Shown piece after piece: positions 29,425 through 50,409 of a stretch of DNA of 58,762 nt (positions are counted from its first letter, which is position 1; each line of letters begins with the position of its first letter). The stretch covers positions 1-58,762 of IMG/VR virus record IMGVR_UViG_3300035070_002022; one strand, 5' to 3'. Made by a program: the position numbers and the translations under genes. The stretch comes from a virus (taxonomy: Duplodnaviria; Caudoviricetes). The notes below the pieces were generated by a model. That model did not search any database and was not told the origin of the DNA. It saw only the letters and a list, made by a program, of their open reading frames with translations.

Positions 29425-29463
29425 TATAACACCAAAGTATTTAAACCAATAAAAACTATATAA

Positions 29464-30830: not shown

Positions 30831-30848
30831 CTAATTAAATTTTTTAAA

Positions 30849-31016
30849 ATGAAACGAACACCAAAACAAACCTGCTCTGTGACAGGTATAAAAACCGCAG
30901 CGAATAATTTTTATAATAACCAAACTCATGTAAAAGCCGTTGACAACATTCGACGAAACACGGGCGCGACAAAAGAACAATTAACTAGAATGTTTAACCA
31001 ATTACAAACGTATTAA
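30849..31016 (+). CDS. Hypothetical protein (55 aa)
   Basis: MKRTPKQTCSVTG...; the track's TTG start lies in the promoter, so ATG 30849 is preferred. Confidence 0.65.
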   Translation: MKRTPKQTCSVTGIKTAANNFYNNQTHVKAVDNIRRNTGATKEQLTRMFNQLQTY

Positions 31017-31019
31017 ATT

Positions 31020-31331: not shown

Positions 31332-31423
31332 TGGCAGAGCAATGCGAAATGTGCGGCGAGGTCATGACTAAGTGTGACTTTGAATATTGCGACATCTGTC
31401 CAGAATGCTTAGAAGGAAATTAA
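31331..31423 (+). CDS. Zn-ribbon microprotein (30 aa)
   Basis: MAEQCEMCGEVMTKCDFEYCDICPECLEGN; TAATG coupling. Confidence 0.65.
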   Translation: MAEQCEMCGEVMTKCDFEYCDICPECLEGN

Positions 31424-31439
31424 TCTAATTAAATTTATC

Positions 31440-31471
31440 GGGAGTATATAGAAATGTATGCTCCCTTTTTT
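31440..31471 (+). terminator. Intrinsic terminator
   Basis: GGGAGTATA...TATGCTCCC followed by TTTTTT. Confidence 0.75.
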
Positions 31472-31485
31472 AACCCTTATATATT

Positions 31486-31647
31486 ATGATAGAACAATGG
31501 TATCAACAAACTATAGGACAACTGATAAATGAAAAAGCAGAGTTAGAAGTAGAGAACACAGATCTAGTAGGATACATACATGCATTACTACAAGGAGATT
31601 GTCCAGAAGAATTAAAAGAACAAATTAAAGAAAAAGTATTTAGATAA
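31486..31647 (+). CDS. Hypothetical protein (53 aa)
   Basis: MIEQWYQQTIGQL...; TAATG coupling to the primase. Confidence 0.6.
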   Translation: MIEQWYQQTIGQLINEKAELEVENTDLVGYIHALLQGDCPEELKEQIKEKVFR

Positions 31648-33353: not shown

Positions 33354-33600
33354 GGTAAAAGCTAGCATGATGGGTAAGCACAACCCAAGCGAAGAAGAAG
33401 AAGCTGCAAGACGTTGGTGTATTAATAACAACATAAGAATATCACCCTCGGCAGTAGGCGCTGGAACACCTACAAGATGGATATTAGTATTAGATCTTAA
33501 TGGTAAAATAGTTAACGGCCCTGATCAACTTGCTAAGAACGAAGTGTGGATTAAAATGTATGAGTATTATATGTATTATTATAAAAAATCAAATCAATGA
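33346..33600 (+). CDS. Hypothetical protein
   Basis: 84-aa ORF overlapping both neighbours. Confidence 0.7.
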   Translation: MPKVKASMMGKHNPSEEEEAARRWCINNNIRISPSAVGAGTPTRWILVLDLNGKIVNGPDQLAKNEVWIKMYEYYMYYYKKSNQ

Positions 33601-33809
33601 AAACAAAAGAAGTAACATTTAGAGACCCTATAATTGAGAAAGTATGTGATCAATTAGTAAACAGATCCGATGTAGGATATAAAAAGTATGGTGTAACTTT
33701 AAACGAAGACGTACCGGACTTACAGAAGTGGTTGCAACACTTACAAGAAGAACTACTAGACGCGGCTAATTATGTAGAAAAACTAAAAAGTGTATTAAGC
33801 AATGATTAA
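33597..33809 (+). CDS. Small all-alpha NTP-pyrophosphatase-like protein
   Basis: RSDVGYKKYGVTL...WLQHLQEELLDAANY. Confidence 0.55.
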   Translation: MKTKEVTFRDPIIEKVCDQLVNRSDVGYKKYGVTLNEDVPDLQKWLQHLQEELLDAANYVEKLKSVLSND

Positions 33810-34626
33810 TATAGAAAGAGAATATAGAAAACTTATGTACGATATCCTTGCCACTGGCAAAGATAAGTCAGATAGAACAGGTACAGGCACAAAGTCTGTG
33901 TTTGGTAGAACTATAAAACACGATATGAGCGAAGGATTCCCTATGTTAACATCTAAGAAAGTTAGCTTTAATGCCGCAAGAACTGAATTGCTTTGGATAT
34001 TGCAAGGTAGAACAGATCTAAAGTATTTAGAAGATAACGGCGTAAATTACTGGAGACCTGATTATGAGCGCTCAGGAAGAACAGATGAAACGCTGGGTCC
34101 TGTATACGGCAAGCAATGGAGAGATTTTGATGGTGTTGACCAGCTTTACAACCTTATCGATGCTATACACAATAATCCTGATAGCCGCCGCATGATGGTT
34201 TCAGCATGGAATGTTAGCGAGCTAAGTGAAATGGCTTTACCACCGTGTCATTACGGCTTTCAAGTCTACGTAAATAACGGTGTTCTGGATTTAATGTGGC
34301 AACAAAGGTCTGCTGATGTTTTTCTTGGTCTGCCGTACGATATTGCAATGTATGGCTTACTACTCGAGATGCTGGCTAAAGGCTGTGATTTGATCCCTGG
34401 ACAGCTAATAGGACAGCTTGGAGACTGTCATTTGTATAACAATCATTTAGATCAAGCTAAGGAATTTTTAAGTAGACCAATACGAGTTACTCCTTCGCTG
34501 AAATTGCATGATGGTTTAGCTATTAGCTATGACGGCCGTGTATATATTCCAGATGCTAAAGATATTGAATTAATCGGATATAATCCATTACCTGCTATAA
34601 AAGCACCACTAAGCGTAGGTAACTAA
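33802..34626 (+). CDS. thyA: Thymidylate synthase
   Basis: DRTGTGT, ELLW, GPVYGKQWR, MALPPCH, QRSADVFLGLP, GDCHLY. Confidence 0.97.
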   Translation: MINIEREYRKLMYDILATGKDKSDRTGTGTKSVFGRTIKHDMSEGFPMLTSKKVSFNAARTELLWILQGRTDLKYLEDNGVNYWRPDYERSGRTDETLGPVYGKQWRDFDGVDQLYNLIDAIHNNPDSRRMMVSAWNVSELSEMALPPCHYGFQVYVNNGVLDLMWQQRSADVFLGLPYDIAMYGLLLEMLAKGCDLIPGQLIGQLGDCHLYNNHLDQAKEFLSRPIRVTPSLKLHDGLAISYDGRVYIPDAKDIELIGYNPLPAIKAPLSVGN

Positions 34627-34637
34627 ACAATTAAATT

Positions 34638-35483
34638 ATGAAAGAAAAAAGGTATTATGTTTACCACGTTTTTGGTAAGAAAATAGGAATGACTAGCAAC
34701 ATACAAAGACGTGTTATTGAAGAGCAAGGTTATGTAGATTCAGAATTTGAAATACTACTATCTAGCGCAAGCATGGACGTTGCATCAAATTACGAACAAC
34801 AGTTTCAAAAACAATATGGTTATCCGGAAGACAGGCAAACATATAAGCAATTAATGAAATTAAATGATATGAAAAACGAACAAAGAATAAACGTAACAAA
34901 TCAAACGACTACATTTCCTTGTCCATTACACAGTTTAAAAAGGTATATTACGCATAAAATACCTTTATCTATAGATGTAGATGGCAAACCCGTGGAAATA
35001 ACTTTAGATAATTTAGAAGAAGTTATTGTTAGTGCTAAGGTTTCAATGTATAACCCAGAACGAACTTATATATATAATAATAAGTTAGTACAGGTAGCAG
35101 GCACAGGATCAAACGACTTTAAGAGTATTACTGTTAACGATCCTACTTATGCTTACGATTACAAACCTACAGCAGCTTGTGGTAAATGTGTATTTCCTAA
35201 AATACGTGAATGGGCCAAACAGCGTGGTATATTTGACAAAGGTGATGTTAAAACACAATATGTTAAGTTAATGGAAGAAGCTGGTGAAGTTGCTAAAGCT
35301 TTGCTAACTAATGACAAGGCTGAGATAAAAGATGGTATTGGTGATATGGTTGTTGTTTTAACTAACCTAGCACATTTATCAGGCTTTACTATAGAAGAAT
35401 GTATTGACGAAGCTTACGATGTTATAAGCAAGCGCCAAGGCAATATGATTAACGGAACTTTTGTAAAGAATGAAACGCTTTAA
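34638..35483 (+). CDS. Fusion of a GIY-YIG-like N-domain and a MazG-like pyrophosphatase
   Basis: N-terminal YYVYH...KIGMTSNIQRR; C-terminal KLMEEAGEVA...DGIGDMVVVL...AYDVISKRQG. Confidence 0.75.
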   Translation: MKEKRYYVYHVFGKKIGMTSNIQRRVIEEQGYVDSEFEILLSSASMDVASNYEQQFQKQYGYPEDRQTYKQLMKLNDMKNEQRINVTNQTTTFPCPLHSLKRYITHKIPLSIDVDGKPVEITLDNLEEVIVSAKVSMYNPERTYIYNNKLVQVAGTGSNDFKSITVNDPTYAYDYKPTAACGKCVFPKIREWAKQRGIFDKGDVKTQYVKLMEEAGEVAKALLTNDKAEIKDGIGDMVVVLTNLAHLSGFTIEECIDEAYDVISKRQGNMINGTFVKNETL

Positions 35484-35919
35484 AAAGTCAAAAAAGAAAG
35501 GTCCTGTCCGCGCTAAAAAAGTTAGCGCCGATGGGATCCAATTCAGATCAGGACTTGAAAAGCATACTTACTTAGCACTAAAAGAAGCTAGCCTATTTGA
35601 ATTGTACGAAGACGAAGTATTTAAAACCCTGGAAGGTTTCACATTCCCTAACGAATCTATTGAAAAGCAATCTAATGGCAAGGGAGAGTTTAAAAACCGA
35701 GGCGCTAAAAAAATACTTGGCATTAAATACACACCGGATTTTACTGGTTATGATTACATAATCGAATGCAAAGGAAGAGCTAACGAGCAATTTCCTTTAC
35801 GTTGGAAACTATTTAAAAGATGGTGTGTTAATAATGGAGAGACAAGAACACTATATAAACCTCAGAACCAAACAGATGTTGCGGAGATGATAAAACTTAT
35901 ACTAGATGGAAGAAAATAA
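35470..35919 (+). CDS. Endonuclease I-like Holliday junction resolvase (T7 gp3-like)
   Basis: FRSGLE...YTPDF...IIECKG. Confidence 0.85.
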   Translation: MKRFKKSKKKGPVRAKKVSADGIQFRSGLEKHTYLALKEASLFELYEDEVFKTLEGFTFPNESIEKQSNGKGEFKNRGAKKILGIKYTPDFTGYDYIIECKGRANEQFPLRWKLFKRWCVNNGETRTLYKPQNQTDVAEMIKLILDGRK

Positions 35920-36061
35920 ATATAACAAATACTTAGCTAAAAAAGCGTATGGAGAAAGACAAATAAACAAATGGGTTAAATGGTCGTGGAACAACACTGG
36001 CCGTATATCATGGAAAGAGTTAGTAAAAAAACAAAATGAATTTAACATAAAGATTTATTAA
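35906..36061 (+). CDS. Hypothetical protein (51 aa)
   Basis: MEENKYNKYLAKKAYGERQINKWVKWSW...; fills the gap before nrdB. Confidence 0.6.
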   Translation: MEENKYNKYLAKKAYGERQINKWVKWSWNNTGRISWKELVKKQNEFNIKIY

Positions 36062-36063
36062 GA

Positions 36064-37032
36064 ATGGGATTATTTGATGAAAGAATAGCGTATAAACCTT
36101 TTGAGTATCCAGAATACTATACTGAAGGTTGGCTAAAACAAGCGCAGGCTTTTTGGTTACACACTGAAATATCAATGCAAAGCGATATCAAGGATTGGAA
36201 CGAGAAGCTTACTGAAAAAGAAAAGCACCTGGTAGGAAATATACTATTAGGTTTTGCACAAACAGAGTGTGCAGTGTCTGATTACTGGACGCAAAAAGTT
36301 GTAGGCTGGTTTCCAAAACATGAGATACAACAAATGGCTATGATGTTCGGGTCACAAGAGACAATACATGCAGTAGCATATAGTTATTTGAATGAAACAC
36401 TAAAACTAGAAGACTATGAAGCCTTTTTACATGAGCCTGCTACGGCAGATAGATTTGATAACTTGGTGGCATACAGCGGCGATTCTCATGTTGGTATTGC
36501 GAAGTCGCTGGCAGTATTTAGTGCCTTTGCGGAAGGTGTTAGTTTGTATTCTGCTTTTGCTGTCTTGTATTCTTTTCAGTTACGGAATTTACTTAAAGGG
36601 ATAGGACAACAAATGAAATGGTCAGTAAGAGATGAATCATTGCACAGTAAGATGGGATGCAGATTATTTCAACACATGTGTGAAGAAAACAATCAATTAC
36701 TGAATCTTTGTAGAGAAGATATAATAACGGCTGCCGAAACAATGGTTAAGCTAGAAGTAAAGTATATAGATAAAATGTTTGAGATGGGTGATATAGAAGG
36801 TATATCGTCTAATGATCTTAAACACTTCATTAAAAAAAGAGCGAATGAAAAACTTGTGGAACTTGGCTACGTCGACCTGGGCAACTATTTTGCGTATGAC
36901 AAACAAGCAGCGGGTAATTTGGATTGGTTTTATCATCTTACCGGGGGGGTTACTCACACTGACTTTTTTGCGACTAGGCCAACTGATTACTCGAAAGCAA
37001 ACGAGGGAGAAGACTTTGAAGATATTTGGTAA
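36064..37032 (+). CDS. nrdB: Ribonucleotide reductase class I beta subunit
   Basis: FWLHTE, QETIHAVAYS, EGVSLYSAF, RDESLH, TDFF. Confidence 0.95.
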   Translation: MGLFDERIAYKPFEYPEYYTEGWLKQAQAFWLHTEISMQSDIKDWNEKLTEKEKHLVGNILLGFAQTECAVSDYWTQKVVGWFPKHEIQQMAMMFGSQETIHAVAYSYLNETLKLEDYEAFLHEPATADRFDNLVAYSGDSHVGIAKSLAVFSAFAEGVSLYSAFAVLYSFQLRNLLKGIGQQMKWSVRDESLHSKMGCRLFQHMCEENNQLLNLCREDIITAAETMVKLEVKYIDKMFEMGDIEGISSNDLKHFIKKRANEKLVELGYVDLGNYFAYDKQAAGNLDWFYHLTGGVTHTDFFATRPTDYSKANEGEDFEDIW

Positions 37033-37056
37033 TAATAAAATAAATAAATAAATAAT

Positions 37057-38778
37057 ATGTGGAATGAAAATTGGGAAAAAAACAAAGATTACCCTGCGTG
37101 GGGTGATAACGACGTCTACAAGAAGACTATATCCGGGGGATATCTATTCGACGGAGAAACGCCGAAAGAAGCTTACGTACGCGTTGCTAAAACGGTTGCT
37201 CGTAGATTATATAAACCGGAAATGGCCGAAACGTTCTTCCAGTACATCTGGAATGGTTGGCTTTGCCTCGCTTCGCCAGTACTATCTAACACAGGTACTG
37301 ATAGGGGCTTGCCTATTAGTTGCTTTGGGATTGATGTTGCTGATAGTATACAGGACATAGGACAGAAGAATTTAGAAATGATGCTACTCGCTAAGCACGG
37401 CGGTGGAGTTGGTGTCGGAATTAATATGATTAGACCCGCTGGCGCTAAAATTACAGGAAATGGAACATCAGACGGAGTCGTACCTTTTTGCAAAATCTAT
37501 GATAGCACAATCCTCGCTACCAATCAAGGATCTGTCAGAAGAGGAGCTGCGTCCGTTAACATTAATATTGAGCATGACGATTTCGAAGAGTGGTTGGAAA
37601 TTAGAGAGCCTAAAGGGGATGTTAACAGACAGTCGCTTAATCTACATCAGTGCGCAATTATTGGTGATAAGTTTATGCGTAAACTTGAACAAGGAGATGC
37701 AGAAGCAAGGACTAGATGGAGTAAACTACTTAGAAAACGTAAGGCAACTGGAGAGCCGTATATTATGTTTAAAGGAAACGTTAATAAAGCGAATCCACCA
37801 GCATATAAAGATAATGGATTAAAAGTTCACATGACTAATATATGTAGTGAAATAACATTACACACGGATGAAAGCCACAGCTTTGTTTGTTGCTTGTCAT
37901 CATTAAATCTAGCTAAATATGAAGAATGGAAAGACACTAACCTTATATATGACGCCACGCTCTTTCTTGACGGTGTTATGGAAGAATTTATTCAAAAAGC
38001 GAAGGGACTACGTGGTTTCGAAAATGCTGTTCGATCTGCGCAAAAGGGGAGAGCATTGGGCTTGGGAGTACTCGGATGGCATACATATCTCCAAGAGAAA
38101 GGTATTCCTTTCGAAGGCTTATTATCTCAGTTTGAAACTAGGAAAATATTTTCACAGATTAAAATTGAAAGTGAGAGAGCGTCTAGGGATTTGGCTGAGA
38201 TTTATGGCGAACCATTGTGGTGTGCTGGAACAGGTATGCGTAACACTCATCTGCGTGCTGTCGCTCCTACCGTTTCTAATAGTAAATTATCTGGCAATGT
38301 TTCTCCTGGGATAGAACCTTGGGCCGCCAATGTATTTACTGAACAAAGTGCTAAAGGTACTTTCATTAGAAAGAATCCAACGTTAGAAAAAGTATTAACT
38401 AAACATAATTTAAACAATGAAGAAACGTGGAATAAAATACTGGCTGACTATGGTTCAATTCAGAATATTGACGGGCTGGATAATATTACCGTGGGTGATC
38501 ATGACATACCTGCCAAAGAAGTTTTTAAAACATTTAAGGAGATCAATCAGCTGGAACTCGTTGCCCAGGCCGGATTAAGACAACAGTATATAGATCAGTC
38601 CGTTAGTTTAAATTTAGCATTTCCTGCGGTAGCAACCCCTAAATGGCTTAACAAAGTTCATATAGAAGCATGGAAGAAAGGTGTTAAAACTTTATACTAT
38701 ACACGTACTGAATCTGTTTTGCGTGGTGATCTTGCTGCTAAAGCGATGGATGAAGACTGTTTAGCTTGTGATGGCTAA
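37057..38778 (+). CDS. nrdA: Ribonucleotide reductase class I alpha subunit (no ATP cone)
   Basis: SPVLSN, SCF, NICSEI, CCLSSLNL, APTVSNS, TLYY, C-terminal CLACDG. Confidence 0.96.
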   Translation: MWNENWEKNKDYPAWGDNDVYKKTISGGYLFDGETPKEAYVRVAKTVARRLYKPEMAETFFQYIWNGWLCLASPVLSNTGTDRGLPISCFGIDVADSIQDIGQKNLEMMLLAKHGGGVGVGINMIRPAGAKITGNGTSDGVVPFCKIYDSTILATNQGSVRRGAASVNINIEHDDFEEWLEIREPKGDVNRQSLNLHQCAIIGDKFMRKLEQGDAEARTRWSKLLRKRKATGEPYIMFKGNVNKANPPAYKDNGLKVHMTNICSEITLHTDESHSFVCCLSSLNLAKYEEWKDTNLIYDATLFLDGVMEEFIQKAKGLRGFENAVRSAQKGRALGLGVLGWHTYLQEKGIPFEGLLSQFETRKIFSQIKIESERASRDLAEIYGEPLWCAGTGMRNTHLRAVAPTVSNSKLSGNVSPGIEPWAANVFTEQSAKGTFIRKNPTLEKVLTKHNLNNEETWNKILADYGSIQNIDGLDNITVGDHDIPAKEVFKTFKEINQLELVAQAGLRQQYIDQSVSLNLAFPAVATPKWLNKVHIEAWKKGVKTLYYTRTESVLRGDLAAKAMDEDCLACDG

Positions 38779-38851
38779 AGGCTAAAATTTATGACTTTTT
38801 TATACATACAATAACTAATGCGTATAAAAAATTGAATAATCTATACATATC

Positions 38852-38884
38852 AAAAAAGGGCTCTCGTAATGAGGGCCCTTTTTT
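38852..38884. terminator. Bidirectional intrinsic terminator
   Basis: AAAAAAGGGCTCTC-GTAAT-GAGGGCCCTTTTTT between convergent operons. Confidence 0.88.
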
Positions 38885-38924
38885 ATTATAGAATTTTCGA
38901 GGTGTGGTTGCCTGTTGTGTAATT

Positions 38925-39005
38925 CTATTTTGTTCTGTTCTTAAACATCAAGTAATATAAGAACGAGTTCCATTCGTGTTTTAGTTTTGCTATAAGTTTT
39001 TTCAT
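38925..39005 (-). CDS. Micropeptide (26 aa)
   Basis: MKKLIAKLKHEWNSFLYYLMFKNRTK; ATGA overlap. Confidence 0.5.
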   Translation of the reverse strand: MKKLIAKLKHEWNSFLYYLMFKNRTK

Positions 39006-39163
39006 TTTTTGTTTTTGTTTTTAGTTAATAACCACCACTTATGCATGGTATATCCGATACTCACCGCTAGCAGAGTAAGTTTAAGAATCATGTCTATCTG
39101 CGACATTGATATCGCGAGTGTGCCTATGTTTAATAAATAAATTTTCAAATCTGATATAGTCAT
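39002..39163 (-). CDS. Small membrane protein, holin-like (53 aa)
   Basis: MTISDLKIYLLNIGTLAISMSQIDMILKLTLLAVSIGYTMHKWWLLTKNKNKK: two hydrophobic segments and a basic tail. Confidence 0.65.
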   Translation of the reverse strand: MTISDLKIYLLNIGTLAISMSQIDMILKLTLLAVSIGYTMHKWWLLTKNKNKK

Positions 39164-39173
39164 TTTAGGGGAT

Positions 39174-42100
39174 TTATTTTAAAGAATTTTTTCTTTTTTT
39201 ATTTTGTAACTCTATTATTTTAAGTATCCTACTTTCTTCTGAACTTAAACCACGTAATTGAGTTTTAGTTACGCCTGCATTCCATAAAAAATCAACTTGC
39301 TCTGCTTTGCTTAGATCTTTTAAAACCTTCATTCTCGCTTGCATTGCTTTGCTATACTTGTTTTTTTCTTTTTTAGGTTTTTCAATTTTAACAGGCTCAC
39401 CTATTTCTTCTCCTCGGCTAATAGCCTCCATATCCTTGTCAAATTGCTTTTTGTTTTGAATGTCCATTAGCCTATCAATCCTGTCGGCTTCTTTAGTAAG
39501 ACTTTTCAATTCTGTTTTAGTAACACCCGCATTCCATAACATATCTACTTGCTCTTTCTTGCTTAAGTCTTTTAGCGCCTTCCTTCTTTTTTCAGTAGGA
39601 TCAAGCTTGTCATATTCTTTATCCTCTTTAAGCCCCTTGAATCTTTCCTTAGCCTCTTCTCTTTCAGCCTTAGTATCTTCTTCCGACATCAATTGCCACT
39701 TAGGCCAACCTAAAGCAATTAAAGGTTTCATCCATGTTTCAGTTTCATCGCTAGCTATATCAACAGCATCTATAGCCATGCCTTGCGCACGATCCAACGG
39801 CAAACCAGTTAGAGCAGCAACCGTATTCGTAGCAGCTGTAACGTATGGATGCTTTAAGGACATTTCGTCAAACTCTATTTCTTTCTTACCCCATTCAAAA
39901 GCATTACCAACTTTACCCGCTTTGCTTAGCTTACTAGATATAGGCGGAGATATTTTCATCACCTCATCCTTAATTGTTGCTGCTAGGTTTTGATTCCTGG
40001 TTTTTTGACTTCTTTCATAAAGCTTTATAGCTAAATTCTTAGCTACAGATACAACAGCCCCGGCTACACCAATACCCCTTAGTATACCATCGGTCATTGA
40101 GTTAGCCACTTTAATAGCCTTTTTAGTTTTGCTAGCACTTTTAGCTGCAGTGTCTTCTTCGCTTTCGTCTTCGTCGTCTCCCATCATTGCCGCAAACATC
40201 GCTTGCTGTAAAAAGTTAAATACAACGTTCTGAAGAACACCATAATAAACTATTCTGGATAGATGCGTCTTAGCATCTCCTCGGCCATTCTTAAGATCCT
40301 GAGCGGCTCTTTTTATTATCCTAGCATATTGCGACGGCGTGTTAGCAAAAGCTAATATAATGCGCCCTATTGGCTCCGCTTGTTGTTTAGATATCTTACT
40401 TGGATCACTTGACTGCTGAGATACTTCGGCAGTAGCTATGAAATCTTCCATTGCTTGTTTCTCAGCTTGCTCTAACGTATACCCAGTACCATTAATAGTT
40501 TTCTCGTTTAAGTAAGTGTTAACTCTATTTCTATAGAAAGACGCACCCCCTGTTGCAATAGCGGCACTATCCGCCATCTTAGTTGGTATAAATCCTACTT
40601 GCAAAATCTTTGCTAATACACCTTGAAATCCGTTTTCTTTGGCTGTTGTAGCAATATCTGCTTCGTTTACATTGATTTTCAAACCATCTCGCCTGTCAAC
40701 CAGGTAATCGGAATTCATAAGATATACCCAGTCTTTCCAATATTGCGGTTGATTAGCAAACGCTTTACCAGCTTGATAAAGATTATTCCCTTCAAAGTTT
40801 ATAAAGTTAGTAAAAGATATTAGCTGTAGTACAGCGGATCTTCTATTAAGGAACATGATATTACCCACCGCAGCATTTAGCCATCTAACAATACCATCTG
40901 TAACACCGTTATTGGTTGGCGTTGAGTTTCTACCCGTTCGCATTCTTCTTAAAGAATCTTTTAATGCAGTTACATAAGGCTTACCATAAGCAGCTTCTAA
41001 TTTGTTTAAATTAGTAGCTGTGAATATAGCGTCAACGTTCTGCTGCCATACTTCTAGTAATTGCTTTCTGCCGTCGGTGTTCAATGTATTAAGTAAATCC
41101 GACGTTATAGTACCCGCTGGCCAACTTTCTGTAGGAGCTTTTGGATCAACATTTTTGTTAAGACCCAATAACTTGTCCGCAAAAGCTTTCAAATCAGGGT
41201 TGGAATTTACATAGTTAACTAATATAGGCAAATCAACATTAGATAAACCAGGTATGTCAAGCCCCTGCGCATCCCAAGTATACACTCTGATAGCATCTTC
41301 TTTGGTAAACAAGCTTTCCTTCATGTTACCGTTCTCGTCTTCATACTTAAAATTCCTCTTAAGAGTTCTAGGTACAATACCTAGCTCTTTTTTAAGCGCC
41401 TTATAGTTTTTAGCTATAGTTATTCTACCGGTTCTTAAACCTGTAACCGCTTTTCCGTAAGGATCCAACAAATGCTCTTTATAAAAAGCCATAGCTGATT
41501 CACCCTTCTTGCCTTTAGGTAATGTAGTATACAACAAACCTAAGAAATCTTCAGCAGATGGTGGAACAAAGAATTTAAACTTACCTTTTTTAGCACCCTT
41601 TTTAGCTGCTTTAACAGATTGATATTCCTTAAAAGCTTCTATTCCAGATTCTTCTTCAATTATTTCGTTGAATCTTTTACTAAGCTGTAGGCTGCTTTTA
41701 ACTCTCGCTTGTTGCACTTTACTCTTAACATCGAGTACAGACAGAACTTCTTTAACAGCTTTAACGTTGCCTATGTGATCATCCGCAAAGTAAAAATCAT
41801 TGTACCCCTCCGCAAATTTACTAAGCACCCAATTAGCTTTTGCCTGCGGGTCTGAGTTAGCAAGACCAGTAATATTAGCTAACGGAATGTCAAGGCCAAT
41901 ACCTTTAAGAAATTCGTGTATAGCAAGAGCACTGTTAGCGGGTCTAGCGGTTAATATGAATACGTTTTCGTTACCAAATTTTTTGTTTCTAGCCATAGCC
42001 TTTTCAAAAAACGGTCCCTTAGCCCCTTTAACAACCTTGCTAAATTCACTAAAATCAAATTCAGCACCACTGGCCAGCATAGCGTCGCCCTCTTTAGCGA

Positions 42101-45100
42101 ACTGGGCGGCATCGATTTTACCGGTAGTGCCGTCAGGCATTGTATATAACACGTTGCTTTTAGTGGTTGCTAATGTATCATCAAAATCCCAAACGCTAAT
42201 ACCTCTGTTTTCTTGATCTAAGCTATTACCTAAAGCTATTGCTTTATCAAAGTTTTCTGCTTGTTTTATAGACTCATCTATACTAAGTCCATCAACACGT
42301 AAATTTTTAGGTAGCTTAAGACTATTTTTGTTTGCCACTTCTTTTCTTTGAGCAGCGTAGTCTATTACAAATGTACCTTTCTTGTTAATAAGTTTTTTAA
42401 CTTCTTTAGTGTTCATTCTTTCAACGCCCCCTACTTTAGGCAAAACTTTATCAAGTTTTTTAGAAATAACATTCACGTAGGCTTCTTTTAAGAATTTTTC
42501 TAATTTATTTTTAGCTGCTGTAGTGCCTCCTTCATTAATGTACTGCTGATAAGCATCGTATATAAACACAGCTGCTGTCTCATGTTCAAGTATAAACTTA
42601 GTGTCTTGAGGGGACAATCTAATAAACTTACCTAATAAAGAAACTTTACGTATCAAAGCATTCGTACCCAGCTTCATTACTGCTAATTTTTCAGAAGCCC
42701 CTGTTTTGTCACCTGATTTTATTAAAGGATCTATTTCTGAAAGAATGAGCTCTTGCGCTGTTTTAGCATCCTCTTCTAATGTTATACCCGCTGCATTAAC
42801 TTTATTAATATTACCGGTTGTCACTTGCCTTTTAATATAGTCTGTGCCTGTTACTTTTTTTATAGGCTTTTTATTTAATTCTATAAATACATTAGTTTGT
42901 TCTTTTTTTGTTTTAGGATTTATACCGGGTTTTGCGGACAAAGTAAAACCTAATTTATTTAATCCCTTTTTGCCTAGCCCGGTAGTTTTAGCTAATTCAT
43001 TAAATAAATCAGCATTAGTGGTCATATCTAAAAACTTTTCATTTGTAAAAGTTCTTCCGTATATTTTTAAAAAAGATTCAATTTTTTTAATTTTAGCATC
43101 ATCACTGAGTTTTTCTAATGAATCTTTAGATAAGCTAGTCCATATTTTATTCATACCAACATTTTGTAGTATGTTTTTGTACGCGGTGCCATAAGCGTTG
43201 CCTATTGCTTTACTTATTACTTCCGCTAATTCGTTGGCTGTAACTTCGTCAGATTTTTTTAATTGTTCTACATATTCATAAGTAAACGTTCTTGCAGCGT
43301 TTAAGTTAATTTCTTTTAAATCTTTGTAAATAAAATCTACCACATCAGCTAGGCTTGCAACTTTTTTGTCTTGCCAGTTTGGTCCAAACCTTGCATTAAT
43401 TTTATTATTCAAATCGGCTACTAAATCGTTGTTTCCTTCTATAATAAAGTTCTTAGTTAGCGCTTTAGAGTACATGTTAGGGTTTTTACCCATTTCTAAA
43501 TCCATTATAGTCATAGGATCTAAATCGCCTTCCGTCCGGCTTAACTCATTTGTGGTCATTCTACCAAACAAGTTTATTAAACCTAGTAGTGTTTGTCCTT
43601 CTTTATCTCTACCACTAACTTCTGGCTTTTTGACTATAGTCCCGTCTTCGGTTTTTCTAGCGCCTATAGCTTCAAGTACTTCGTCCATCGTAAGCTTTTG
43701 CTCAATTCTTTCCACATTACCTATACCAGTTGTTTTTCTGCTTTCAACTTTATAGGCTAGATTCATTAAGTTTTTAGGTAGACCCGTTGATTTACCAGAA
43801 AATCTTCCCTTACGGCCACTTGCATACTTATAATCCCCCGCACTTGTTTGAGGTAAAAATCTAAATAAAGCCTCGGCTATGGATTCATTAGCTTCTCTTT
43901 TGTAAGAAAAGTCTGGATTGGATGCTCGTTGCTCATTCAGACTATCTTGAAAAGCACCAACCTCATCCAAAGGAACTCTTGCTTCTCTAGTGGTATCACC
44001 TTCCTTTATTGTAAATACCGCTTGCTGTTTAGTAAACGCTTCTACTGCATTGGTATAATCTTGTTTGTTTAAATTTCCTGATCTAGCAGTTAAAGTACCT
44101 TGCGTAACACCAAACATTTCCGAAAGAATATTATTAATAAGGTTAGGTAACTTTTTAAAGTTTTCAACTTTTGTGTTACCTTCGTTCTCTATCCAAAATT
44201 CTTTAACTTGCTGCTTAGCCTGTTCTGTTCTTGTGTCACTGGCTAGCAAAGCTGAAACTTTTCTTAGCGATTGCTCTGTTATAGATTCAATTGCAGTATC
44301 AGAAAACATTTCAGTAGAAGTATCTGCTATTTTAGTTAGAGCATCAGCTCCCCTTGATATCCCTTGTTCTTTGCTTATAACACCTAATCTTTGAGCCAGG
44401 TTTCTAAGACGAAGCCCCCCTCTTTGAAATATAATATCTTCGATGTCATTAATAACCTCCTCCCCAGATCTGTTTATAGTTTCAGGTTTAAACTCATTAA
44501 TGGTAAGGCTTGTTATTTCTGCTTTAGCCGATTGCATAAACTCTTCACGTGTTACTGCAGCTGTTGCATTTTTAGCAATTTTATCGTAATAAAGTTTAGT
44601 AAATAAATTTACTGCTTTGTTTATAGGAGTTTCCAGCGCAGCCGTTATTTCTTTTTCTATTTTGTTAAGAGCAAGCGGTTTATCTACAGCTAATGGTTTG
44701 TTTTTAAGATCAGCTATTCTTTTTTCTCGACTTGTTCTGCTTTCAACTTTATCATCAATAGCTTCAATCGCCGCAATAGCATCGGCGTTTAATTTCTTTT
44801 CTTTAGCTATTAGCTCTTTATTTAGTTTTTGAGCCTCCGCTATCTTAGGCTCTATTTCTTTTTTAACATCCTTATCTAACGAATATTTTCTTTTGGACTT
44901 ATCAGCCTTAGGTCTAACTATTGCCTCCTTAGGAGCTTCCTGAATAGCCCCTGTTGTAGGTGTAGCCTCTGTAGCCGGAGCAGCGAGTGCCGCATCAAGT
45001 GCATCACCAGCTTTTTCCATTTTTTCGTATAAAGCTAAATTGTTTGGATCTTCTGCAGCTTGATCTTGTAAATCAAAGTAAGCTTCTTCCAAAGCCTCAA

Positions 45101-48100
45101 TTGACATAGACGCTTTTGTTTTAGGCTCTTGCTTTTTAGCGGGCTTTTTTGTTTGTACTTTAGGAACAACAGAAGATAATCTTTGTATTTCACTAAAGCT
45201 TAAATCTCCGTTTTTTATTTTAGTACCAATAGACGCGGCAAACGCAGCGAAATCTTCTGCTCCTTTAAAGTTAAAGTTATAGCTATTGGCAGCTATTTCC
45301 TGCATGTTATAGGCTAACGTGCTGGCAAACGTAGTGTTTTCTTTTGATGTTAAGTTTATTTTATTATCACCTATCATTTCAAAAAACGCCATTAATGTTT
45401 CTTCGGCTATCTCCGCTTCTGGCCTATTAGCTTGTTTATAAGGATTTATATTAAGCTGCATCTTAGCATCTAAAGAAGGGCTATTTTGTTTTAACCATAG
45501 CCTAATTTGATTTGCAAAAACAATCATTGATTCAGGATTGTTCTTAAATATTTTTGAAACAATGGGGTGGCCTACCTCATGAATACTTACACTAGTTTTT
45601 CCTTCTTCTAGTTGGCTTTCTACAACAGCAATAGGTATTGTTGTTCCATCTGTCAAGGGAATTGCTACCCCAGCTCCGCCATCCATAATATTTTTTTCAG
45701 CTGCTGCGGAATTTTCAGGCGTTACCTTATCTCCTAGCTCCAGAATAATATACTCTATAGCCTCATCTTTTGTTTTAAAAGACTGAAAATTTTTGTCTAC
45801 TTTTTTAGCAGCAGTATTATTTTCTTCAATGCGTTCTGTATTATAAAGCTTTATAGCTTCATCTATAACAGCTTTGTCTTTGCCGTTTTCTTTACCTGTA
45901 TTTATTTTAGCCTCATTAATTAATCTATCATAAGTATTGCGATCATTAGCTTCTAAAAGATAAAAGTTTTCGCCAAAAGTAGTTTCATCTAAAAAGTTTT
46001 TTCTTGCGTTCATGTGATTTTCAAAATCACCTTCTAACTTAGTAAGCATTTCCCTTTTATTTTCTGGGGTAAGATTAGGGTTATTCACTATATCAGAAGC
46101 TTTTTGTCTAGCCCCGTTAATAAAGTTCATTACGCCTTGAAAGCCTGCGCTTCCTTGTCTATCTATTTTTGTACTTATGTTTTTTTCTAATTTATCAATC
46201 GTAGCTTCATTTACAGCTTGCAACTCTAAAATAGTATTTTCAATATCTTTTCTTGCGGGATCTTTTGCGTCGAGCATAGCCCAATTTTGTTGAAGACGTA
46301 CTATTTGTTTCATTCTACTATCCATAGCTAATTGAGTATCCGATGTAGAATAATACCTTGCTGCCGCTCCTTTAATAAATGGAACTGTAGAAAATGCAAA
46401 CCCAAAACCTAAACTACTTAAAGCTACGTGGTCCGCATTTTCAAATATAGGCCTTCCGTCTATAGCGTTTTCTACAACATTAGTAGCTAATTCACCTGAA
46501 AGCTCTAGTATATTATCACCAACAATAGCCCTTTTCCAGTTTTGAGTTATGTAGTCCTTACTATTAAGCAGAAATTCTTTGCCAAAGCCCGCATTTTTAT
46601 AGGTTTTTATACCTCTTTGTAATATTGGGTTTGTAGTCAATGAAGTAAATACGCCATTTGCTAAACCAAAGCCAATCATTTTAGCGGTTTTTTCAACACC
46701 ACCTGTTTTTTTGCCAGTTATACTGTCTTCGTAAGTTATATCTAAGCCTTTTTGCCCAGCAGTCCAAGCTCCTACAACATAAGGTGCTAAAGTTCCTCCT
46801 GATGCAGTCATAGCTAAAAGCACGGGTGCTTGAGTAGTTATTTCCTGCATTACAAACTTAGAAAAGTTTCCAATACTACTAAAAGCATCGCCTACCGCTA
46901 CGTCTGAAACAAAGCTGGACCTAATGTCATTTGTAGCTGTTTTGTATTTAATTGCTAGTTCGTCAACGGCTATATCCATTGCTTTGCCAGCAGTAGGAAT
47001 AACCGAAGGAGCTGAATATTTAACAAGAGTGTTTGCGGCATATAACAAACCTGTTGCAATATCCGCAACACCTAAGCCAAAACTCGTGGCGTATTTTTCG
47101 GTTAAATTATAATCTAATTGAGCAGCCTCTAATGCAGGCTGTAATTTTTCGTATTGACCACCAAGCTCTGTGCCCCTTTCATATAGTTTGTCTAATGCTG
47201 TTGAGCTAGCATTTAGTAAGGCATTTTCTAATTGTATCTTGCTTAGCTGGTTCTCGGTAATTTTTACACCGGCTTTGGATACTAGCATTTGGCTTCCATC
47301 TTGAACTCCAAGTTTAAGAACAGAGCCATCAGAAAGCATTATATCTGTTTGATTAATTTTTTTACCTTCTAAATAATCCTTAGCAATTCTAACTGAGTTG
47401 GATGTTTTTTCAGCTGTATCTAATTCCGTGCAAAACACTACACTATTTACTTTAGACTCTTTAGATATTTTTGATTGTTTAGTAAACAACCCGCTAAGTA
47501 ATGCGCTTTGTGTTTTCTTTTCAATTCCTGCTTTTAAATAACGAACACTTCCTACAGCATTTGGCCTAGTTGACTCTATAAGATTTTCTGTTTTCTTTTT
47601 AGTTAGCTCAACTCTTTTGTTTGCTATTATATTAGCATAAGCCATTTGAGTACTTTGATCAAAAAGTTCTTCAGGAGATATATCAGGGTTTTCTTTTTGT
47701 ATAATTTCTCTTGCAGCTTGCAATTCGTCTTTATATGGGAACACTGTTTTCTTTACCATAACTCCACCTGTCCTGTTTCCCTGGAACTCTGATACCTCTT
47801 TTGGCTTAAATATAGTAGTAACATCCTCCGGTAGTTCAGCTTTTATAGCCTCGTCTGAAACATAAAGAGGACCACCTGGTTTTGCTAAATTAATAACCGC
47901 GCTAGCTTGCCCCGTTATTTTTGCGGCAGCATTGTAGCTCATATATTTATCACCAAAATCTGATAATATTTTAGCTGTTTCTTTCCCTGGAGTATTTTCA
48001 TTAATTCGCACAGAAGATTTTTCTTGCGTATCAGGGTTCGTGTAAGTTAATATAGCGTTTTTACTTCGATCTTTTGATTGTGTTTGTTGAACACCTTTTT

Positions 48101-48806
48101 TGTCGTATTCTATTGTAATATTAGGATCAACACTAAATATATTTTCAAATAAATTTTTTTGTTCGTCCCAGTCTGTGCCTTCTAAGCTTTCGCCATAACT
48201 TTCAATATCTTGTATAATGCTCTGCCCTTCTTGCCCCGCAGTAACATCAGTTGAAAGAACTACCTCATCTAAAGATCCACCGCCAAAACCATCTTCTATT
48301 CTAGCGTTTGGGAATTTACCTATGTAGGCATTAAGCAATGTTTCATCAGTAATACCTTCTTTTATGCCTTTGTTTTCGCCATTGCTCCACTGATATATTT
48401 CAGAGCTTATATCACCACTAAGTTTTATATCGCCGTTTCTAATAGACGACACAACGGTAGCGGCATCGTATGATTGGTCCCCTATTACTACACTTTTGTT
48501 TACTAAATCCTTATCGATTATAGGTAAATCCGAAGAAGTATCTTCCAACGGTAATACCGTATCTTCTTGTGCTGCATTTTCCGACACTGCATCCGCACTC
48601 TTTGCAGGGTCTGTTGTAAAATCTTCTTGCAAATCTTCGGGTACATTGCCTTGGATTACTTCGCTAAATGCGCTTTCAGGAGCAGCCTCTTCAGGAGCCA
48701 TCATTTGCACAAAATAGCCCATTTCATCCGCTTTCGCTAAGCCGGCGTCTCTTTCAATTTCATTTTTAAAAACTACAGTTTTTCCGTTTATTTGGTATCT
48801 AAACAT
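39174..48806 (-). CDS. Giant internal virion / ejected polyvalent protein (zincin HExxH, sigma-2-like segment, HAD phosphatase)
   Basis: 3210 aa, last of three ejection-type genes; HEVGH at 45567-45581; DFDDT at 42174-42188; hydrophobic helices in the N-terminal third. Confidence 0.8.
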   Translation of the reverse strand: MFRYQINGKTVVFKNEIERDAGLAKADEMGYFVQMMAPEEAAPESAFSEVIQGNVPEDLQEDFTTDPAKSADAVSENAAQEDTVLPLEDTSSDLPIIDKDLVNKSVVIGDQSYDAATVVSSIRNGDIKLSGDISSEIYQWSNGENKGIKEGITDETLLNAYIGKFPNARIEDGFGGGSLDEVVLSTDVTAGQEGQSIIQDIESYGESLEGTDWDEQKNLFENIFSVDPNITIEYDKKGVQQTQSKDRSKNAILTYTNPDTQEKSSVRINENTPGKETAKILSDFGDKYMSYNAAAKITGQASAVINLAKPGGPLYVSDEAIKAELPEDVTTIFKPKEVSEFQGNRTGGVMVKKTVFPYKDELQAAREIIQKENPDISPEELFDQSTQMAYANIIANKRVELTKKKTENLIESTRPNAVGSVRYLKAGIEKKTQSALLSGLFTKQSKISKESKVNSVVFCTELDTAEKTSNSVRIAKDYLEGKKINQTDIMLSDGSVLKLGVQDGSQMLVSKAGVKITENQLSKIQLENALLNASSTALDKLYERGTELGGQYEKLQPALEAAQLDYNLTEKYATSFGLGVADIATGLLYAANTLVKYSAPSVIPTAGKAMDIAVDELAIKYKTATNDIRSSFVSDVAVGDAFSSIGNFSKFVMQEITTQAPVLLAMTASGGTLAPYVVGAWTAGQKGLDITYEDSITGKKTGGVEKTAKMIGFGLANGVFTSLTTNPILQRGIKTYKNAGFGKEFLLNSKDYITQNWKRAIVGDNILELSGELATNVVENAIDGRPIFENADHVALSSLGFGFAFSTVPFIKGAAARYYSTSDTQLAMDSRMKQIVRLQQNWAMLDAKDPARKDIENTILELQAVNEATIDKLEKNISTKIDRQGSAGFQGVMNFINGARQKASDIVNNPNLTPENKREMLTKLEGDFENHMNARKNFLDETTFGENFYLLEANDRNTYDRLINEAKINTGKENGKDKAVIDEAIKLYNTERIEENNTAAKKVDKNFQSFKTKDEAIEYIILELGDKVTPENSAAAEKNIMDGGAGVAIPLTDGTTIPIAVVESQLEEGKTSVSIHEVGHPIVSKIFKNNPESMIVFANQIRLWLKQNSPSLDAKMQLNINPYKQANRPEAEIAEETLMAFFEMIGDNKINLTSKENTTFASTLAYNMQEIAANSYNFNFKGAEDFAAFAASIGTKIKNGDLSFSEIQRLSSVVPKVQTKKPAKKQEPKTKASMSIEALEEAYFDLQDQAAEDPNNLALYEKMEKAGDALDAALAAPATEATPTTGAIQEAPKEAIVRPKADKSKRKYSLDKDVKKEIEPKIAEAQKLNKELIAKEKKLNADAIAAIEAIDDKVESRTSREKRIADLKNKPLAVDKPLALNKIEKEITAALETPINKAVNLFTKLYYDKIAKNATAAVTREEFMQSAKAEITSLTINEFKPETINRSGEEVINDIEDIIFQRGGLRLRNLAQRLGVISKEQGISRGADALTKIADTSTEMFSDTAIESITEQSLRKVSALLASDTRTEQAKQQVKEFWIENEGNTKVENFKKLPNLINNILSEMFGVTQGTLTARSGNLNKQDYTNAVEAFTKQQAVFTIKEGDTTREARVPLDEVGAFQDSLNEQRASNPDFSYKREANESIAEALFRFLPQTSAGDYKYASGRKGRFSGKSTGLPKNLMNLAYKVESRKTTGIGNVERIEQKLTMDEVLEAIGARKTEDGTIVKKPEVSGRDKEGQTLLGLINLFGRMTTNELSRTEGDLDPMTIMDLEMGKNPNMYSKALTKNFIIEGNNDLVADLNNKINARFGPNWQDKKVASLADVVDFIYKDLKEINLNAARTFTYEYVEQLKKSDEVTANELAEVISKAIGNAYGTAYKNILQNVGMNKIWTSLSKDSLEKLSDDAKIKKIESFLKIYGRTFTNEKFLDMTTNADLFNELAKTTGLGKKGLNKLGFTLSAKPGINPKTKKEQTNVFIELNKKPIKKVTGTDYIKRQVTTGNINKVNAAGITLEEDAKTAQELILSEIDPLIKSGDKTGASEKLAVMKLGTNALIRKVSLLGKFIRLSPQDTKFILEHETAAVFIYDAYQQYINEGGTTAAKNKLEKFLKEAYVNVISKKLDKVLPKVGGVERMNTKEVKKLINKKGTFVIDYAAQRKEVANKNSLKLPKNLRVDGLSIDESIKQAENFDKAIALGNSLDQENRGISVWDFDDTLATTKSNVLYTMPDGTTGKIDAAQFAKEGDAMLASGAEFDFSEFSKVVKGAKGPFFEKAMARNKKFGNENVFILTARPANSALAIHEFLKGIGLDIPLANITGLANSDPQAKANWVLSKFAEGYNDFYFADDHIGNVKAVKEVLSVLDVKSKVQQARVKSSLQLSKRFNEIIEEESGIEAFKEYQSVKAAKKGAKKGKFKFFVPPSAEDFLGLLYTTLPKGKKGESAMAFYKEHLLDPYGKAVTGLRTGRITIAKNYKALKKELGIVPRTLKRNFKYEDENGNMKESLFTKEDAIRVYTWDAQGLDIPGLSNVDLPILVNYVNSNPDLKAFADKLLGLNKNVDPKAPTESWPAGTITSDLLNTLNTDGRKQLLEVWQQNVDAIFTATNLNKLEAAYGKPYVTALKDSLRRMRTGRNSTPTNNGVTDGIVRWLNAAVGNIMFLNRRSAVLQLISFTNFINFEGNNLYQAGKAFANQPQYWKDWVYLMNSDYLVDRRDGLKINVNEADIATTAKENGFQGVLAKILQVGFIPTKMADSAAIATGGASFYRNRVNTYLNEKTINGTGYTLEQAEKQAMEDFIATAEVSQQSSDPSKISKQQAEPIGRIILAFANTPSQYARIIKRAAQDLKNGRGDAKTHLSRIVYYGVLQNVVFNFLQQAMFAAMMGDDEDESEEDTAAKSASKTKKAIKVANSMTDGILRGIGVAGAVVSVAKNLAIKLYERSQKTRNQNLAATIKDEVMKISPPISSKLSKAGKVGNAFEWGKKEIEFDEMSLKHPYVTAATNTVAALTGLPLDRAQGMAIDAVDIASDETETWMKPLIALGWPKWQLMSEEDTKAEREEAKERFKGLKEDKEYDKLDPTEKRRKALKDLSKKEQVDMLWNAGVTKTELKSLTKEADRIDRLMDIQNKKQFDKDMEAISRGEEIGEPVKIEKPKKEKNKYSKAMQARMKVLKDLSKAEQVDFLWNAGVTKTQLRGLSSEESRILKIIELQNKKRKNSLK

Positions 48807-48831
48807 ATATCTTTATTTAATTCTTTTATTA

Positions 48832-50409
48832 CTAATTTACTAGTGTAGCTAATTGCTGTGACATTTCTCTAGCTTGCAGTTCTTTCATTGGATTTACTAA
48901 TCTAATGAAATTATAGCGTTGCTCAGGTATTTTTAAATCGTAAGTTCTTTTGTCTGTATCAGGCGAAGTAGTGGATTCTTTTTTAGGATTACCTGTAGCG
49001 GTAATGCTTACTACCCCGTTTTCTATAGTTGCACTGTAGGCTTCTACATATCCAGTTTTGTGTCTGATTCTAAGGCCTTTGTCTATGTTAAATAAACTTT
49101 TAGCCACACTACTTAAATCACCTCCTGCGGCCACGGCTGTATCAAAGTCTTTTTTGTATACATTGTAAAGCTGCTCTGATTTTTGAACTGAAACCTTTTT
49201 GTCCGGAGCATATTCCACCGATGATTTACCATCTATTGTAAACCTATACTGAGGAGTTTCTCCTTCTATAGACATATCTTGCACTGACATTCCAAAAGCT
49301 CCAGCTGCAGCTTGATTAATAGCTAGGTTAACTGTTCCCGCCGCATTTTTATACGCTTCTATTTTTTCGTCTGTAGCATTAGGGTCGTTTGCAGGGTTGC
49401 CCTCTCTAAAAATGTTTGCAGTATCATTGTCTACGCTTAGCTGATTTTTCATCATATCAAGGTAGTCCTCCTGTCCGAACATACCGCCAACATTAGCCGT
49501 AATTTCTGCAACTGAAGTGTCCACCAGTGCCTTGCCCTCAGGGGTGATCGTCTGCTTTTTTGTAGCAGTATAATCCCCTGTCCAACTGCCGTCTTCGTTC
49601 ATTACTTTTACTTTGTCTGTAACTATTTGCATGTTTTGTGTATACTTGGGATCCACCGCATTGCCTTTCATTAGCTGGGCTCCTGCTTGAGCAGTACCCT
49701 GTTTTACCGTTTGGGTTATGGGATTACTAGCGCGGAAATCGTCCGAAATAAATGTATCCATGCTTACGCTATACGTGTTTTGCTTTCCGCCATCGTTATA
49801 AGTAGAATTTATGCTTACGTTTCCGTCGTAGCCTACAGACATAAGAAGCGTCGTATCCGGGGCATTATTGTACGAGCTCATTACTCCTTGAGTATTAGGG
49901 CTCTCAGCAACCCCACTTTGAGAAGGTAGGGTCGCCCAGGACTCTGTGTAACCTATTATCGTACTACCGTCTTTCATTAGCCGCTGGCCTTCTTGCCCCA
50001 TCTGGGGAATTTTTGGAGCTGCAACGTTTATATTATTCAGCTGCTTTACGGCATTAGCTTGCGCCTTTAATAATTCCGCCTTTCTTTCTGGTGTTTGGGG
50101 CTTTAGCAATTCCTTCGCAGTGTCCGCTTGCACTTGGTTAAAATAGTCCTGGGTATTTCTTACACTTTCTCGAAAAGCCTCTCCCCCTTTTACTTGAAGT
50201 TTGTAGGAATCGTCTGTTCTTTTTGCATACGCTTTATCAATTGCGATACCGCCATTAATTAACCTTTGCTTTTCTATGTCATTTTTTTTCCTTGTAGCTG
50301 CTAAGTTAGCACTCCACCCTTTGGATATCTGCGCACCTATATTTGCAATTGCATTGGGGATTATTAGTCCTGACTTATCGTCTATTATTTTTGGATCTCT
50401 ATAACTCAT
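48832..50409 (-). CDS. Putative internal virion (ejection) protein
   Basis: 525 aa, between the pilot-like protein and the giant protein. Confidence 0.6.
   Translation of the reverse strand: MSYRDPKIIDDKSGLIIPNAIANIGAQISKGWSANLAATRKKNDIEKQRLINGGIAIDKAYAKRTDDSYKLQVKGGEAFRESVRNTQDYFNQVQADTAKELLKPQTPERKAELLKAQANAVKQLNNINVAAPKIPQMGQEGQRLMKDGSTIIGYTESWATLPSQSGVAESPNTQGVMSSYNNAPDTTLLMSVGYDGNVSINSTYNDGGKQNTYSVSMDTFISDDFRASNPITQTVKQGTAQAGAQLMKGNAVDPKYTQNMQIVTDKVKVMNEDGSWTGDYTATKKQTITPEGKALVDTSVAEITANVGGMFGQEDYLDMMKNQLSVDNDTANIFREGNPANDPNATDEKIEAYKNAAGTVNLAINQAAAGAFGMSVQDMSIEGETPQYRFTIDGKSSVEYAPDKKVSVQKSEQLYNVYKKDFDTAVAAGGDLSSVAKSLFNIDKGLRIRHKTGYVEAYSATIENGVVSITATGNPKKESTTSPDTDKRTYDLKIPEQRYNFIRLVNPMKELQAREMSQQLATLVN

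Follow-up and report, generated by a model that had tools for sequence, protein, structure and literature searches.

The present analysis concerns a sigma-like stretch inside a giant phage protein encoded by IMG/VR virus record IMGVR_UViG_3300035070_002022; the window analyzed is this entire record, a linear sequence of 58,762 bases with an estimated completeness of 91%. The locus is occupied by a single open reading frame (ORF; P0001, 39174–48806, minus strand) of 3210 amino acids (aa), regarded as a putative virion protein of the polyvalent, ejected kind from the ORF call and from a gene position that matches annotated structural proteins. A reading of the window from its sequence only (hereafter the sequence-only reading) had singled out three peptides in this protein as following sigma region 2 by eye. 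All three are present in it, between aa 1404 and 1475 (44382–44597, minus strand): KLYYDKI at aa 1404–1410 (44577–44597), TREEFMQSAKAEITSLTINEFKPE at aa 1419–1442 (44481–44552), and IEDIIFQRGGLRLRNLAQRLG at aa 1455–1475 (44382–44444). They fall within a domain of aa 1305–1484 (44355–44894, minus strand; model residues 16–195) whose predicted fold is like that of sigma domain 2 and corresponds to regions 1.2 through 2.4. Within it, chains of extracytoplasmic-function (ECF)-type sigmas align to model residues 87–196 and delimit a sigma2-like core of four helices plus a beta-hairpin insert, aa 1376–1479 (44370–44681, minus strand), a nearly exact match to the span originally flagged. The core carries an invariant cluster, E1438, F1439 and K1440 followed by R1462, G1463 and R1466, in the columns of the family alignment. 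On the evidence of the model, the flagged stretch forms the core of this domain with its predicted sigma domain-2 fold, and since the uninterrupted 3210-aa frame contains this domain with no internal stop, it is not a free, dissociable subunit.

The fold was predicted for the block of aa 1290–1800. Homologous giant proteins were retrieved from marine metagenomes (n = 94), and 32 of them were aligned with the block to give alignment A1; this block was itself the query with which the homologues were fetched, so that the conservation profile is biased. The AlphaFold2 model had a pLDDT of 77.7 and a pTM of 0.66, and it continues beyond the sigma2-like N module into a middle helical part and an alpha/beta "C module" (aa 1513–1790; 43437–44270, minus strand). 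Foldseek found no match to the model in the PDB at E ≤ 0.001, but about 17 of the 49 weak rows listed were sigma chains, which prompted searches with VIA. Against 48,161 PDB cluster representatives, VIA-align placed entries titled sigma or holoenzyme at ranks 1–28, except for a chain of the AR9 polymerase (7s01_A) and an epitope scaffold (3les_A), and only two entries in the top 35 were clearly unrelated. The match to SigB of S. aureus (8x6g) took in 91 of 91 residues of the aligned range at 2.4 Å and covered the whole of sigma2, while a control model was without comparable sigma enrichment. The Z of the VIA match was moderate and the tool warns about helical models. The predicted model thus has the domain-2 fold, regions 1.2–2.4, that marks the sigma-70 family. 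From the aligned ranges and the secondary structure, REEFMQ...NEFKP (model helix 131–149) would be region 2.2 and DIEDIIFQRGGLRLRNLAQRL (model helix 166–184) would be regions 2.3–2.4, with the beta-hairpin between the two. In this last helix F1460, R1462, G1463, and R1466 are invariant and there is no run of aromatics, as judged from alignment and secondary structure. The sequence-only reading had proposed a comparison with sigma2 and sigma4; VIA-align supports the first, and structure comparison found no sigma4-like or other recognizable DNA-reading part.

Searches by sequence gave a different picture. Pfam returned nothing at E ≤ 10 for aa 1290–1800 or for aa 1390–1502, and in particular no region 2 (PF04542); PHROGs and NCBIfam, including TIGR02937, returned nothing for the domain at the same threshold. 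No sigma was found when the 3210-aa protein or the segment was compared by phmmer with PDB sequences, and the 33-sequence family profile produced 10 weak rows against PDB sequences, a sigma in none of them. Alignment by hhalign of a 130-sequence domain alignment with a 121-sequence alignment of the free-sigma family (described below) gave a probability of 0.5%, a query of the ESM Atlas with the domain gave no usable neighbour, and a profile scan of genome contigs with the 33-sequence alignment A1 matched 73 pattern stretches, none of which was confirmed. The by-eye likeness to sigma region 2 consequently fails at the level of sequence, by Pfam and by hhalign, and survives at the level of the predicted fold.

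A sigma factor docks through its domain 2 on the clamp helices of beta' in core RNA polymerase. A complex was predicted between model residues 11–200 and residues 1–400 of RPOC_FLAJ1, the beta' of Flavobacterium johnsoniae taken as a stand-in host, in three runs with three controls. The scores were 0.49, 0.74, and 0.55, with a median of 0.55 against 0.16 for the best control, for which the verdict of the tool is "weak support". The tool is calibrated on solved complexes, of which 58 of 80 attain the mark, and on mismatched pairs, of which 2 of 110 do; at scores of 0.60 or less it was attained by only 7 of those 80 solved complexes, together with both passing mismatches. The runs agreed in at least 77% of contacts, with a partner pLDDT of at least 77. 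Because solved sigma–beta' complexes are in the PDB, the pass may mirror fold likeness alone, and contact of the sigma2-like domain with beta' is weakly supported by this prediction.

It is possible, if somewhat doubtful, that the sigma2-like shape is convergent or mis-predicted and that the domain is unrelated to RNA polymerase, serving instead as a structural or ejection-channel part, as a binder of DNA ends or single-stranded DNA, or as an effector on some other host target. The silence of the sequence searches, the want of a usable Atlas neighbour, the moderate Z with its caveat for helical models, and the lack of a clear aromatic melting motif would all be expected in that case, and the cassette is dispensable across the phage group (see below), as are the variable effector domains of polyvalent proteins (PMC5512222). 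What speaks for a true sigma2 fold is the specificity of the match, in which nearly all top-ranked representatives were sigma2, SigB was superposed over its entire aligned range and the control model showed no such enrichment, and the fact that the docking score exceeded all three controls.

The role of such a domain has to be judged against the transcription signals of the phage. The window encodes a free sigma factor of the sigma-70 family (256 aa; 28603–29373, plus strand), identified by TIGR02937 (52.2 bits against a cut-off of 42.9), by phrog_351 (1.4e-19) and by Pfam Sigma70_r2 (PF04542). The last has a single match in the whole 58,762-base record, at 28708–28941, in agreement with the earlier statement that only one free sigma gene exists. 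Weak NCBIfam matches of this protein include the defence-associated sigma family MzaA, which is a lead only. Motif scans also recovered the two promoter classes that the sequence-only reading had described, with the GATWAT box common to both. The class I promoter-like motif, TTGCAGAC-N5-ACG-N10-GATAAT, has 11 copies spanning 21790–30847, all on the plus strand. The sigma gene, which had been placed downstream of the class I array, lies inside the block that class I would drive, with 10 motifs upstream of it and one downstream. GTGATWATATA is common to the five class II sites, of which three have CGTAG, and the distance from the end of GTAG to GAT is 18 nucleotides (nt). Shortly before the sigma gene, one class II-like site (28399–28430, minus strand) points leftwards, antisense to the early genes at 27444–28302; it may give rise to an antisense transcript or be a regulatory site. 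In sequence, the class I motifs are unlike the promoter type of Bacteroidota, the consensus of which we take to be TTTG...TAnnTTTG; this pattern had 12 matches in the record where 8.6 were expected from shuffles, and none between 21.5 and 31 kb. The class I geometry of a hexamer, N18, and GATAAT suits an ordinary two-domain sigma.

To place these signals among related phages, a set of 25 records was compared, consisting of the window (G000), G009, and 23 contigs of at least 59 kb from the first 80 loci listed in an IMG/VR motif scan; shorter contigs and loci L106–L145 were left out, and 24 of the 25 records are at least 90% complete. The scan itself, for TTNCANAC-N5-ACG-N10-GATAAT, found at least 120 stretches, and TTACAAAC was by far the commonest first box, accounting for 116 of the 175 instances among the matches listed. 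Arrays of class I type, meaning at least four motifs on one strand with no control matches, were present in 22 of the 25 records. Even in two relatives in which the block is only 50% and 46% identical there were 14 and 8 class I copies, respectively, on a single strand and with the motif exact, against none in controls. A TTRCANAC-N5-ACG-N10-GATAAT array, often followed by TGTAAC, was seen as a hallmark of a large group of marine phage genomes of 60–70 kb; a conserved TG(T/A)A stands downstream of GATAAT. Class II sites in the form GTAG-N16-GTGATWATAT were observed in two nearer relatives, G001 and G002 (the records of L007 and L008), five in each with no control matches, on the strand opposite to class I at five of five sites in G001 and four of five in G002; G009 had weak matches only.

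Homologues of the free sigma were found in 24 of the 25 records, with 39–56% identity and always on the array strand. Where their position was shown they lay at or after the downstream end of the array, and in all 24 near-complete records the sigma gene is on the array strand, inside or after the array. The nearer relative G002 has no visible free sigma, but its contig stops about 950 nt past the last class I motif and is uninformative. In two records (G015:C1:29954–30739, minus strand, and G021:C1:18107–18894, plus strand) the sigma ATG begins 6–7 nt after a class I GATAAT box, a spacing that suggests a leaderless sigma mRNA and possible autoregulation. Two other free sigmas, both from complete records, are interrupted: that of G009 (G009:C1:58338–58985) has one in-frame TAG and one in-frame TAA and is without the region 4.2 end, and that of G024 (G024:C1:55770–56520) has several in-frame stops. 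Sequencing errors, pseudogenes, or split genes could account for these stops.

The giant protein is likewise widespread, and its sigma2-like part is not. A giant ORF of 2300–3817 aa with the HAD phosphatase-like and C-terminal parts described below occurs in 24 of the 25 records at 38–52% identity. By profile, the sigma2-like N module was found in 2 of 25 (the window and G027), and the match in G009 covers flanking profile positions only. DNA of the giant protein was taken for 20 of 22 records, with G020 and G026 left out, and 22 giant proteins were compared; hmmsearch with all filters off (--max) again found the N module in 2 of the 22. When the 3210-aa protein was compared by blastp with the 21 others, the 1290–1800 block was matched only in G027 (aa 1339–1482, 30% identity) and in G023 (C module, aa 1644–1781, 31%). 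Among close relatives the module has been exchanged: P0140 and L021 carry it, and in L018 and L020 (the latter from G009) its place is taken by an unrelated-looking cassette, with flanks 69–86% identical to those of P0140. Comparison of flanks placed this variant cassette, of about 110–125 aa, in the position of the sigma2-like module at L018:10421–10750, L020:9686–10060 and G023:C1:23164–23463. The C module that accompanies it in G023 is the one seen in the window. The RFKP...DGK...ISTFVYRNI stretch of the variant cassette resembles sigma regions 2.2–2.4 by eye only; the L018 and L020 versions had no match in Pfam, PDB, PHROG, or NCBIfam, and hhalign, run on an alignment of two sequences only, gave a probability of 0.4% with the N module and of 0.2% with the free sigma. 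Co-variation of the class I upstream hexamer with cassette type was considered and dropped, as hexamer positions 3 and 6 vary inside single arrays. Several small stand-alone proteins with the domain (P0100, P0105, P0120, P0121, P0138, P0145) have the look of fragments, their gene calls being apparently truncated or chimeric.

These distributions bear directly on the proposal of the sequence-only reading, in which the sigma2-like module, released from the giant protein, is the specificity factor for class I promoters and drives early transcription, after which the newly made free sigma reads class II. Several observations are in keeping with such a cascade: the predicted sigma2-like fold and its weakly supported docking to beta', the unlikeness of class I to the assumed Bacteroidota promoter, the GATWAT box shared by both classes, the by-eye region 2 likeness of the variant cassette in G009 and G023, and the place of the sigma gene, which shares the strand of the class I array in every near-complete record, lies within it or beyond it, and cannot make its own first transcript if its product is the reader. 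Nevertheless we think the cascade very unlikely. A promoter nearly invariant in 22 of 25 records implies a conserved reader, and a module detectable in only 2 of 25 and swapped in close relatives is therefore unlikely to be that reader. The free sigma, conserved in 24 of 25, fits the role and the cassette does not; no sigma4-like or other part that could read the upstream boxes was found, and the class I geometry is one suited to a sigma with two domains. The statement that the domain drives class I transcription is not supported. The free sigma or the host enzyme qualifies as a candidate class I reader, and a minority cassette does not.

A related idea would have the cassette act as a virion-delivered "starter sigma" that loads the first host core polymerases on class I, with the cassettes of other members, such as that with RFKP...ISTFVYRNI in G009 and G023, being equally sigma2-like but too diverged for sequence methods to recognize. 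Phage sigma2-like domains can diverge past sequence detection, as this one has from sigma, and every giant protein might hide one. If true, it would solve the bootstrap problem posed by a sigma gene that is always behind class I promoters; we consider it quite unlikely. A further possibility is that the domain is a sigma mimic acting as decoy or competitor, which either displaces or blocks the host primary sigma locally or absorbs a host factor aimed at sigma-type proteins, such as an anti-sigma or defence sensor, in both cases protecting or favouring the phage free sigma. The sigma2-like fold would suit such a decoy, its sporadic and exchangeable distribution is typical of counter-defence cassettes, and the tentative MzaA lead from the free sigma would fit as well. 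With the few copies expected per virion, however, stoichiometric competition with cellular sigma would be improbable, and we give this explanation little credence.

Around the cassette the giant protein has a recurring architecture. HEVGHP, a zincin-type HExxH motif without a Pfam match (aa 1076–1081; 45564–45581, minus strand), is the only HExxH in the 3210 residues, and its H, E, and H columns are nearly invariant in the family alignment. A domain like HAD and polynucleotide-kinase-phosphatase (PNK) enzymes (aa 2197–2399; 41610–42218, minus strand) was recognized by phrog_415 at 4e-07 and by the only DxDxT of the protein, at aa 2207. A conserved C-terminal scaffold (aa 2400–3210; 39177–41609, minus strand) is common to the relatives together with the HAD part; its closest ESM Atlas clusters are viral hypothetical proteins, and the Atlas gave leads only to LPD39 (0.94) and LPD38 (0.92). 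The HExxH peptidase motif, the HAD phosphatase, and this scaffold recur throughout a large group of marine phages of Flavobacteriia. Pfam matched nothing in the whole protein at E ≤ 1, the LPD families included. The sequence-only reading had reported no DxDxD virion RNA polymerase motif and was correct in this, as a scan of the whole protein found none; neither was any polymerase family matched by Pfam (E ≤ 1), and the PHROG match was to PNK/HAD only, although the C-terminal 811 aa were read by sequence alone and a very divergent enzyme is still possible there. The best Foldseek match in BFVD was to a piece of an uncultured virus "UDP-N-acetylglucosamine kinase" (A0A218MLT5_1; E 2.2e-05 over 518 columns), probably a homologous giant protein carrying a further, perhaps zeta-toxin-like, domain.

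The remaining gene content of the phage comprises terminase, portal, GroES/GroEL, tail fibres, Erf, exonuclease, primase-helicase, ThyA, MazG, and ribonucleotide reductase. Relatives of the terminase were found in 87 phage records, from phages of Flavobacterium (68; genus Elemovirus, about 60 kb), Cellulophaga (15), Tenacibaculum (2), Maribacter (1), and one other. A Shine-Dalgarno sequence was absent before all 23 larger genes, each preceded by a stretch rich in A that in many cases ends with AACTATG; missing Shine-Dalgarno sequences fit a Bacteroidota host, and from these sequence features the host would be placed in the Flavobacteriia. The genes of Elemovirus NC_055854 run from terminase through portal and structural genes to a 1470-aa protein and finally to gp18, a "structural protein" of 3694 aa, and in Cellulophaga phage phi46:3 the 1440-aa virion structural protein gp120 closes the same module. 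The window has the same order, with terminase, portal, structural genes, a protein of about 1500 aa, and the giant protein, the last gene being annotated as structural in those phages. Because its gene position equals that of these annotated structural proteins, we infer that the 3210-aa protein is packaged and ejected. Gp18 of Elemovirus was considered as a carrier of the domain and rejected, since no similarity was found and a common "EFKPE" is coincidence. Searches of 50,697 phage records by tblastn with aa 1000–2200 and aa 2190–3210 gave no match, nor did megablast with positions 30000–50000 of the window.

With a confidence just short of even, we interpret aa ~1305–1484 as a sigma2-fold domain that is an exchangeable cassette of a polyvalent virion protein and an accessory module for RNA polymerase take-over, and not as the class I reader. 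The flagged stretch would be a sporadic, probably injected, RNA polymerase-directed cassette that is accessory to a conserved, sigma-based programme of the group. The giant protein would be packaged and, by its gene position, ejected with the DNA, and possibly cut by its own zincin; the cassette may then engage the host RNA polymerase at the sigma docking site and serve, right at the onset of infection, as an accessory module of take-over or recruitment. A number of points weigh against this interpretation. Similarity of the domain to any sigma is not detectable at sequence level, and the aromatic-rich signature of region 2.3 is not evident, F1460 being the only invariant aromatic in the last helix. 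The fold is a prediction from a shallow alignment of 33 fairly close sequences, and the high conservation of the block is partly an ascertainment effect, the block itself having been the retrieval query. The docking result is weak, its host is a stand-in and the tool gave no interface. Packaging, ejection, and cleavage are deduced from gene position alone, and a few copies per virion could hardly titrate the cellular RNA polymerase, which makes a role as inhibitor hard to see. The comparison also brings out a clear and testable puzzle: these marine phages of Flavobacteriia, an abundant group, always have their own sigma gene preceded by a rigid promoter array unlike those of the host, an array that some factor must read at time zero.

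Comparison with known systems helps to place the domain. It shares its predicted fold with sigma-70 domain 2, as in S. aureus SigB (8x6g) and regions 1.2–2.4 of E. coli sigma70, but differs in having no detectable sequence similarity, in its extra long N-terminal helices and beta-hairpin insert, and in lying within a 3210-aa protein rather than in a free subunit, with no sigma3 or sigma4 found. T4 gp55 is a minimal late sigma that is essentially a sigma2-like domain, and it is free, newly made, and works with gp33 and the sliding clamp; the present module, in contrast, belongs to a virion protein, and its action would come first instead of last. The likeness to the N4 virion RNA polymerase (PMC13434306, PMC4496689) and to gp66 of crAss-like phage phi14:2 lies in a virion protein of some 3000 residues, encoded at the end of the structural module and thought to be ejected with the DNA. 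Unlike those proteins, that of the window has neither polymerase motif nor polymerase family match and would contribute at most a polymerase-binding domain; as it carries its own free sigma, the phage relies on the host core enzyme. Polyvalent proteins, surveyed in phages and in conjugative elements (Iyer et al. 2017, PMC5512222), are huge proteins that combine unrelated domains, are often processed by a zincin, and are delivered with the DNA to act before gene expression, with functions that include a jump-start of transcription. The giant protein most likely has the hallmarks of this kind: it combines several unrelated domains, among them an HExxH motif that could process it and a HAD enzyme domain, its central cassettes differ among the 22 giants compared, and a role in the first minutes is proposed. 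It departs from them in that the Pfam LPD families are unmatched, with the Atlas leads to LPD39 and LPD38 only, and the word "sigma" does not appear anywhere in the survey's main text, although its supplements may list further domains. The accessible literature on virion-borne sigma or sigma-like factors turned up only virion RNA polymerases and non-virion sigma-like subunits. A sigma2-type fold in a polyvalent virion protein thus appears to be new, as a new domain type in a known kind of protein. Some phages carry whole RNA polymerases in the virion (N4, crAss-like phages, phiKZ), and others an enzyme that acts on the polymerase of the host by modifying it, as T4 does with Alt; if the domain described here binds core polymerase, it would add a new means by which a phage takes over transcription ahead of all gene expression.

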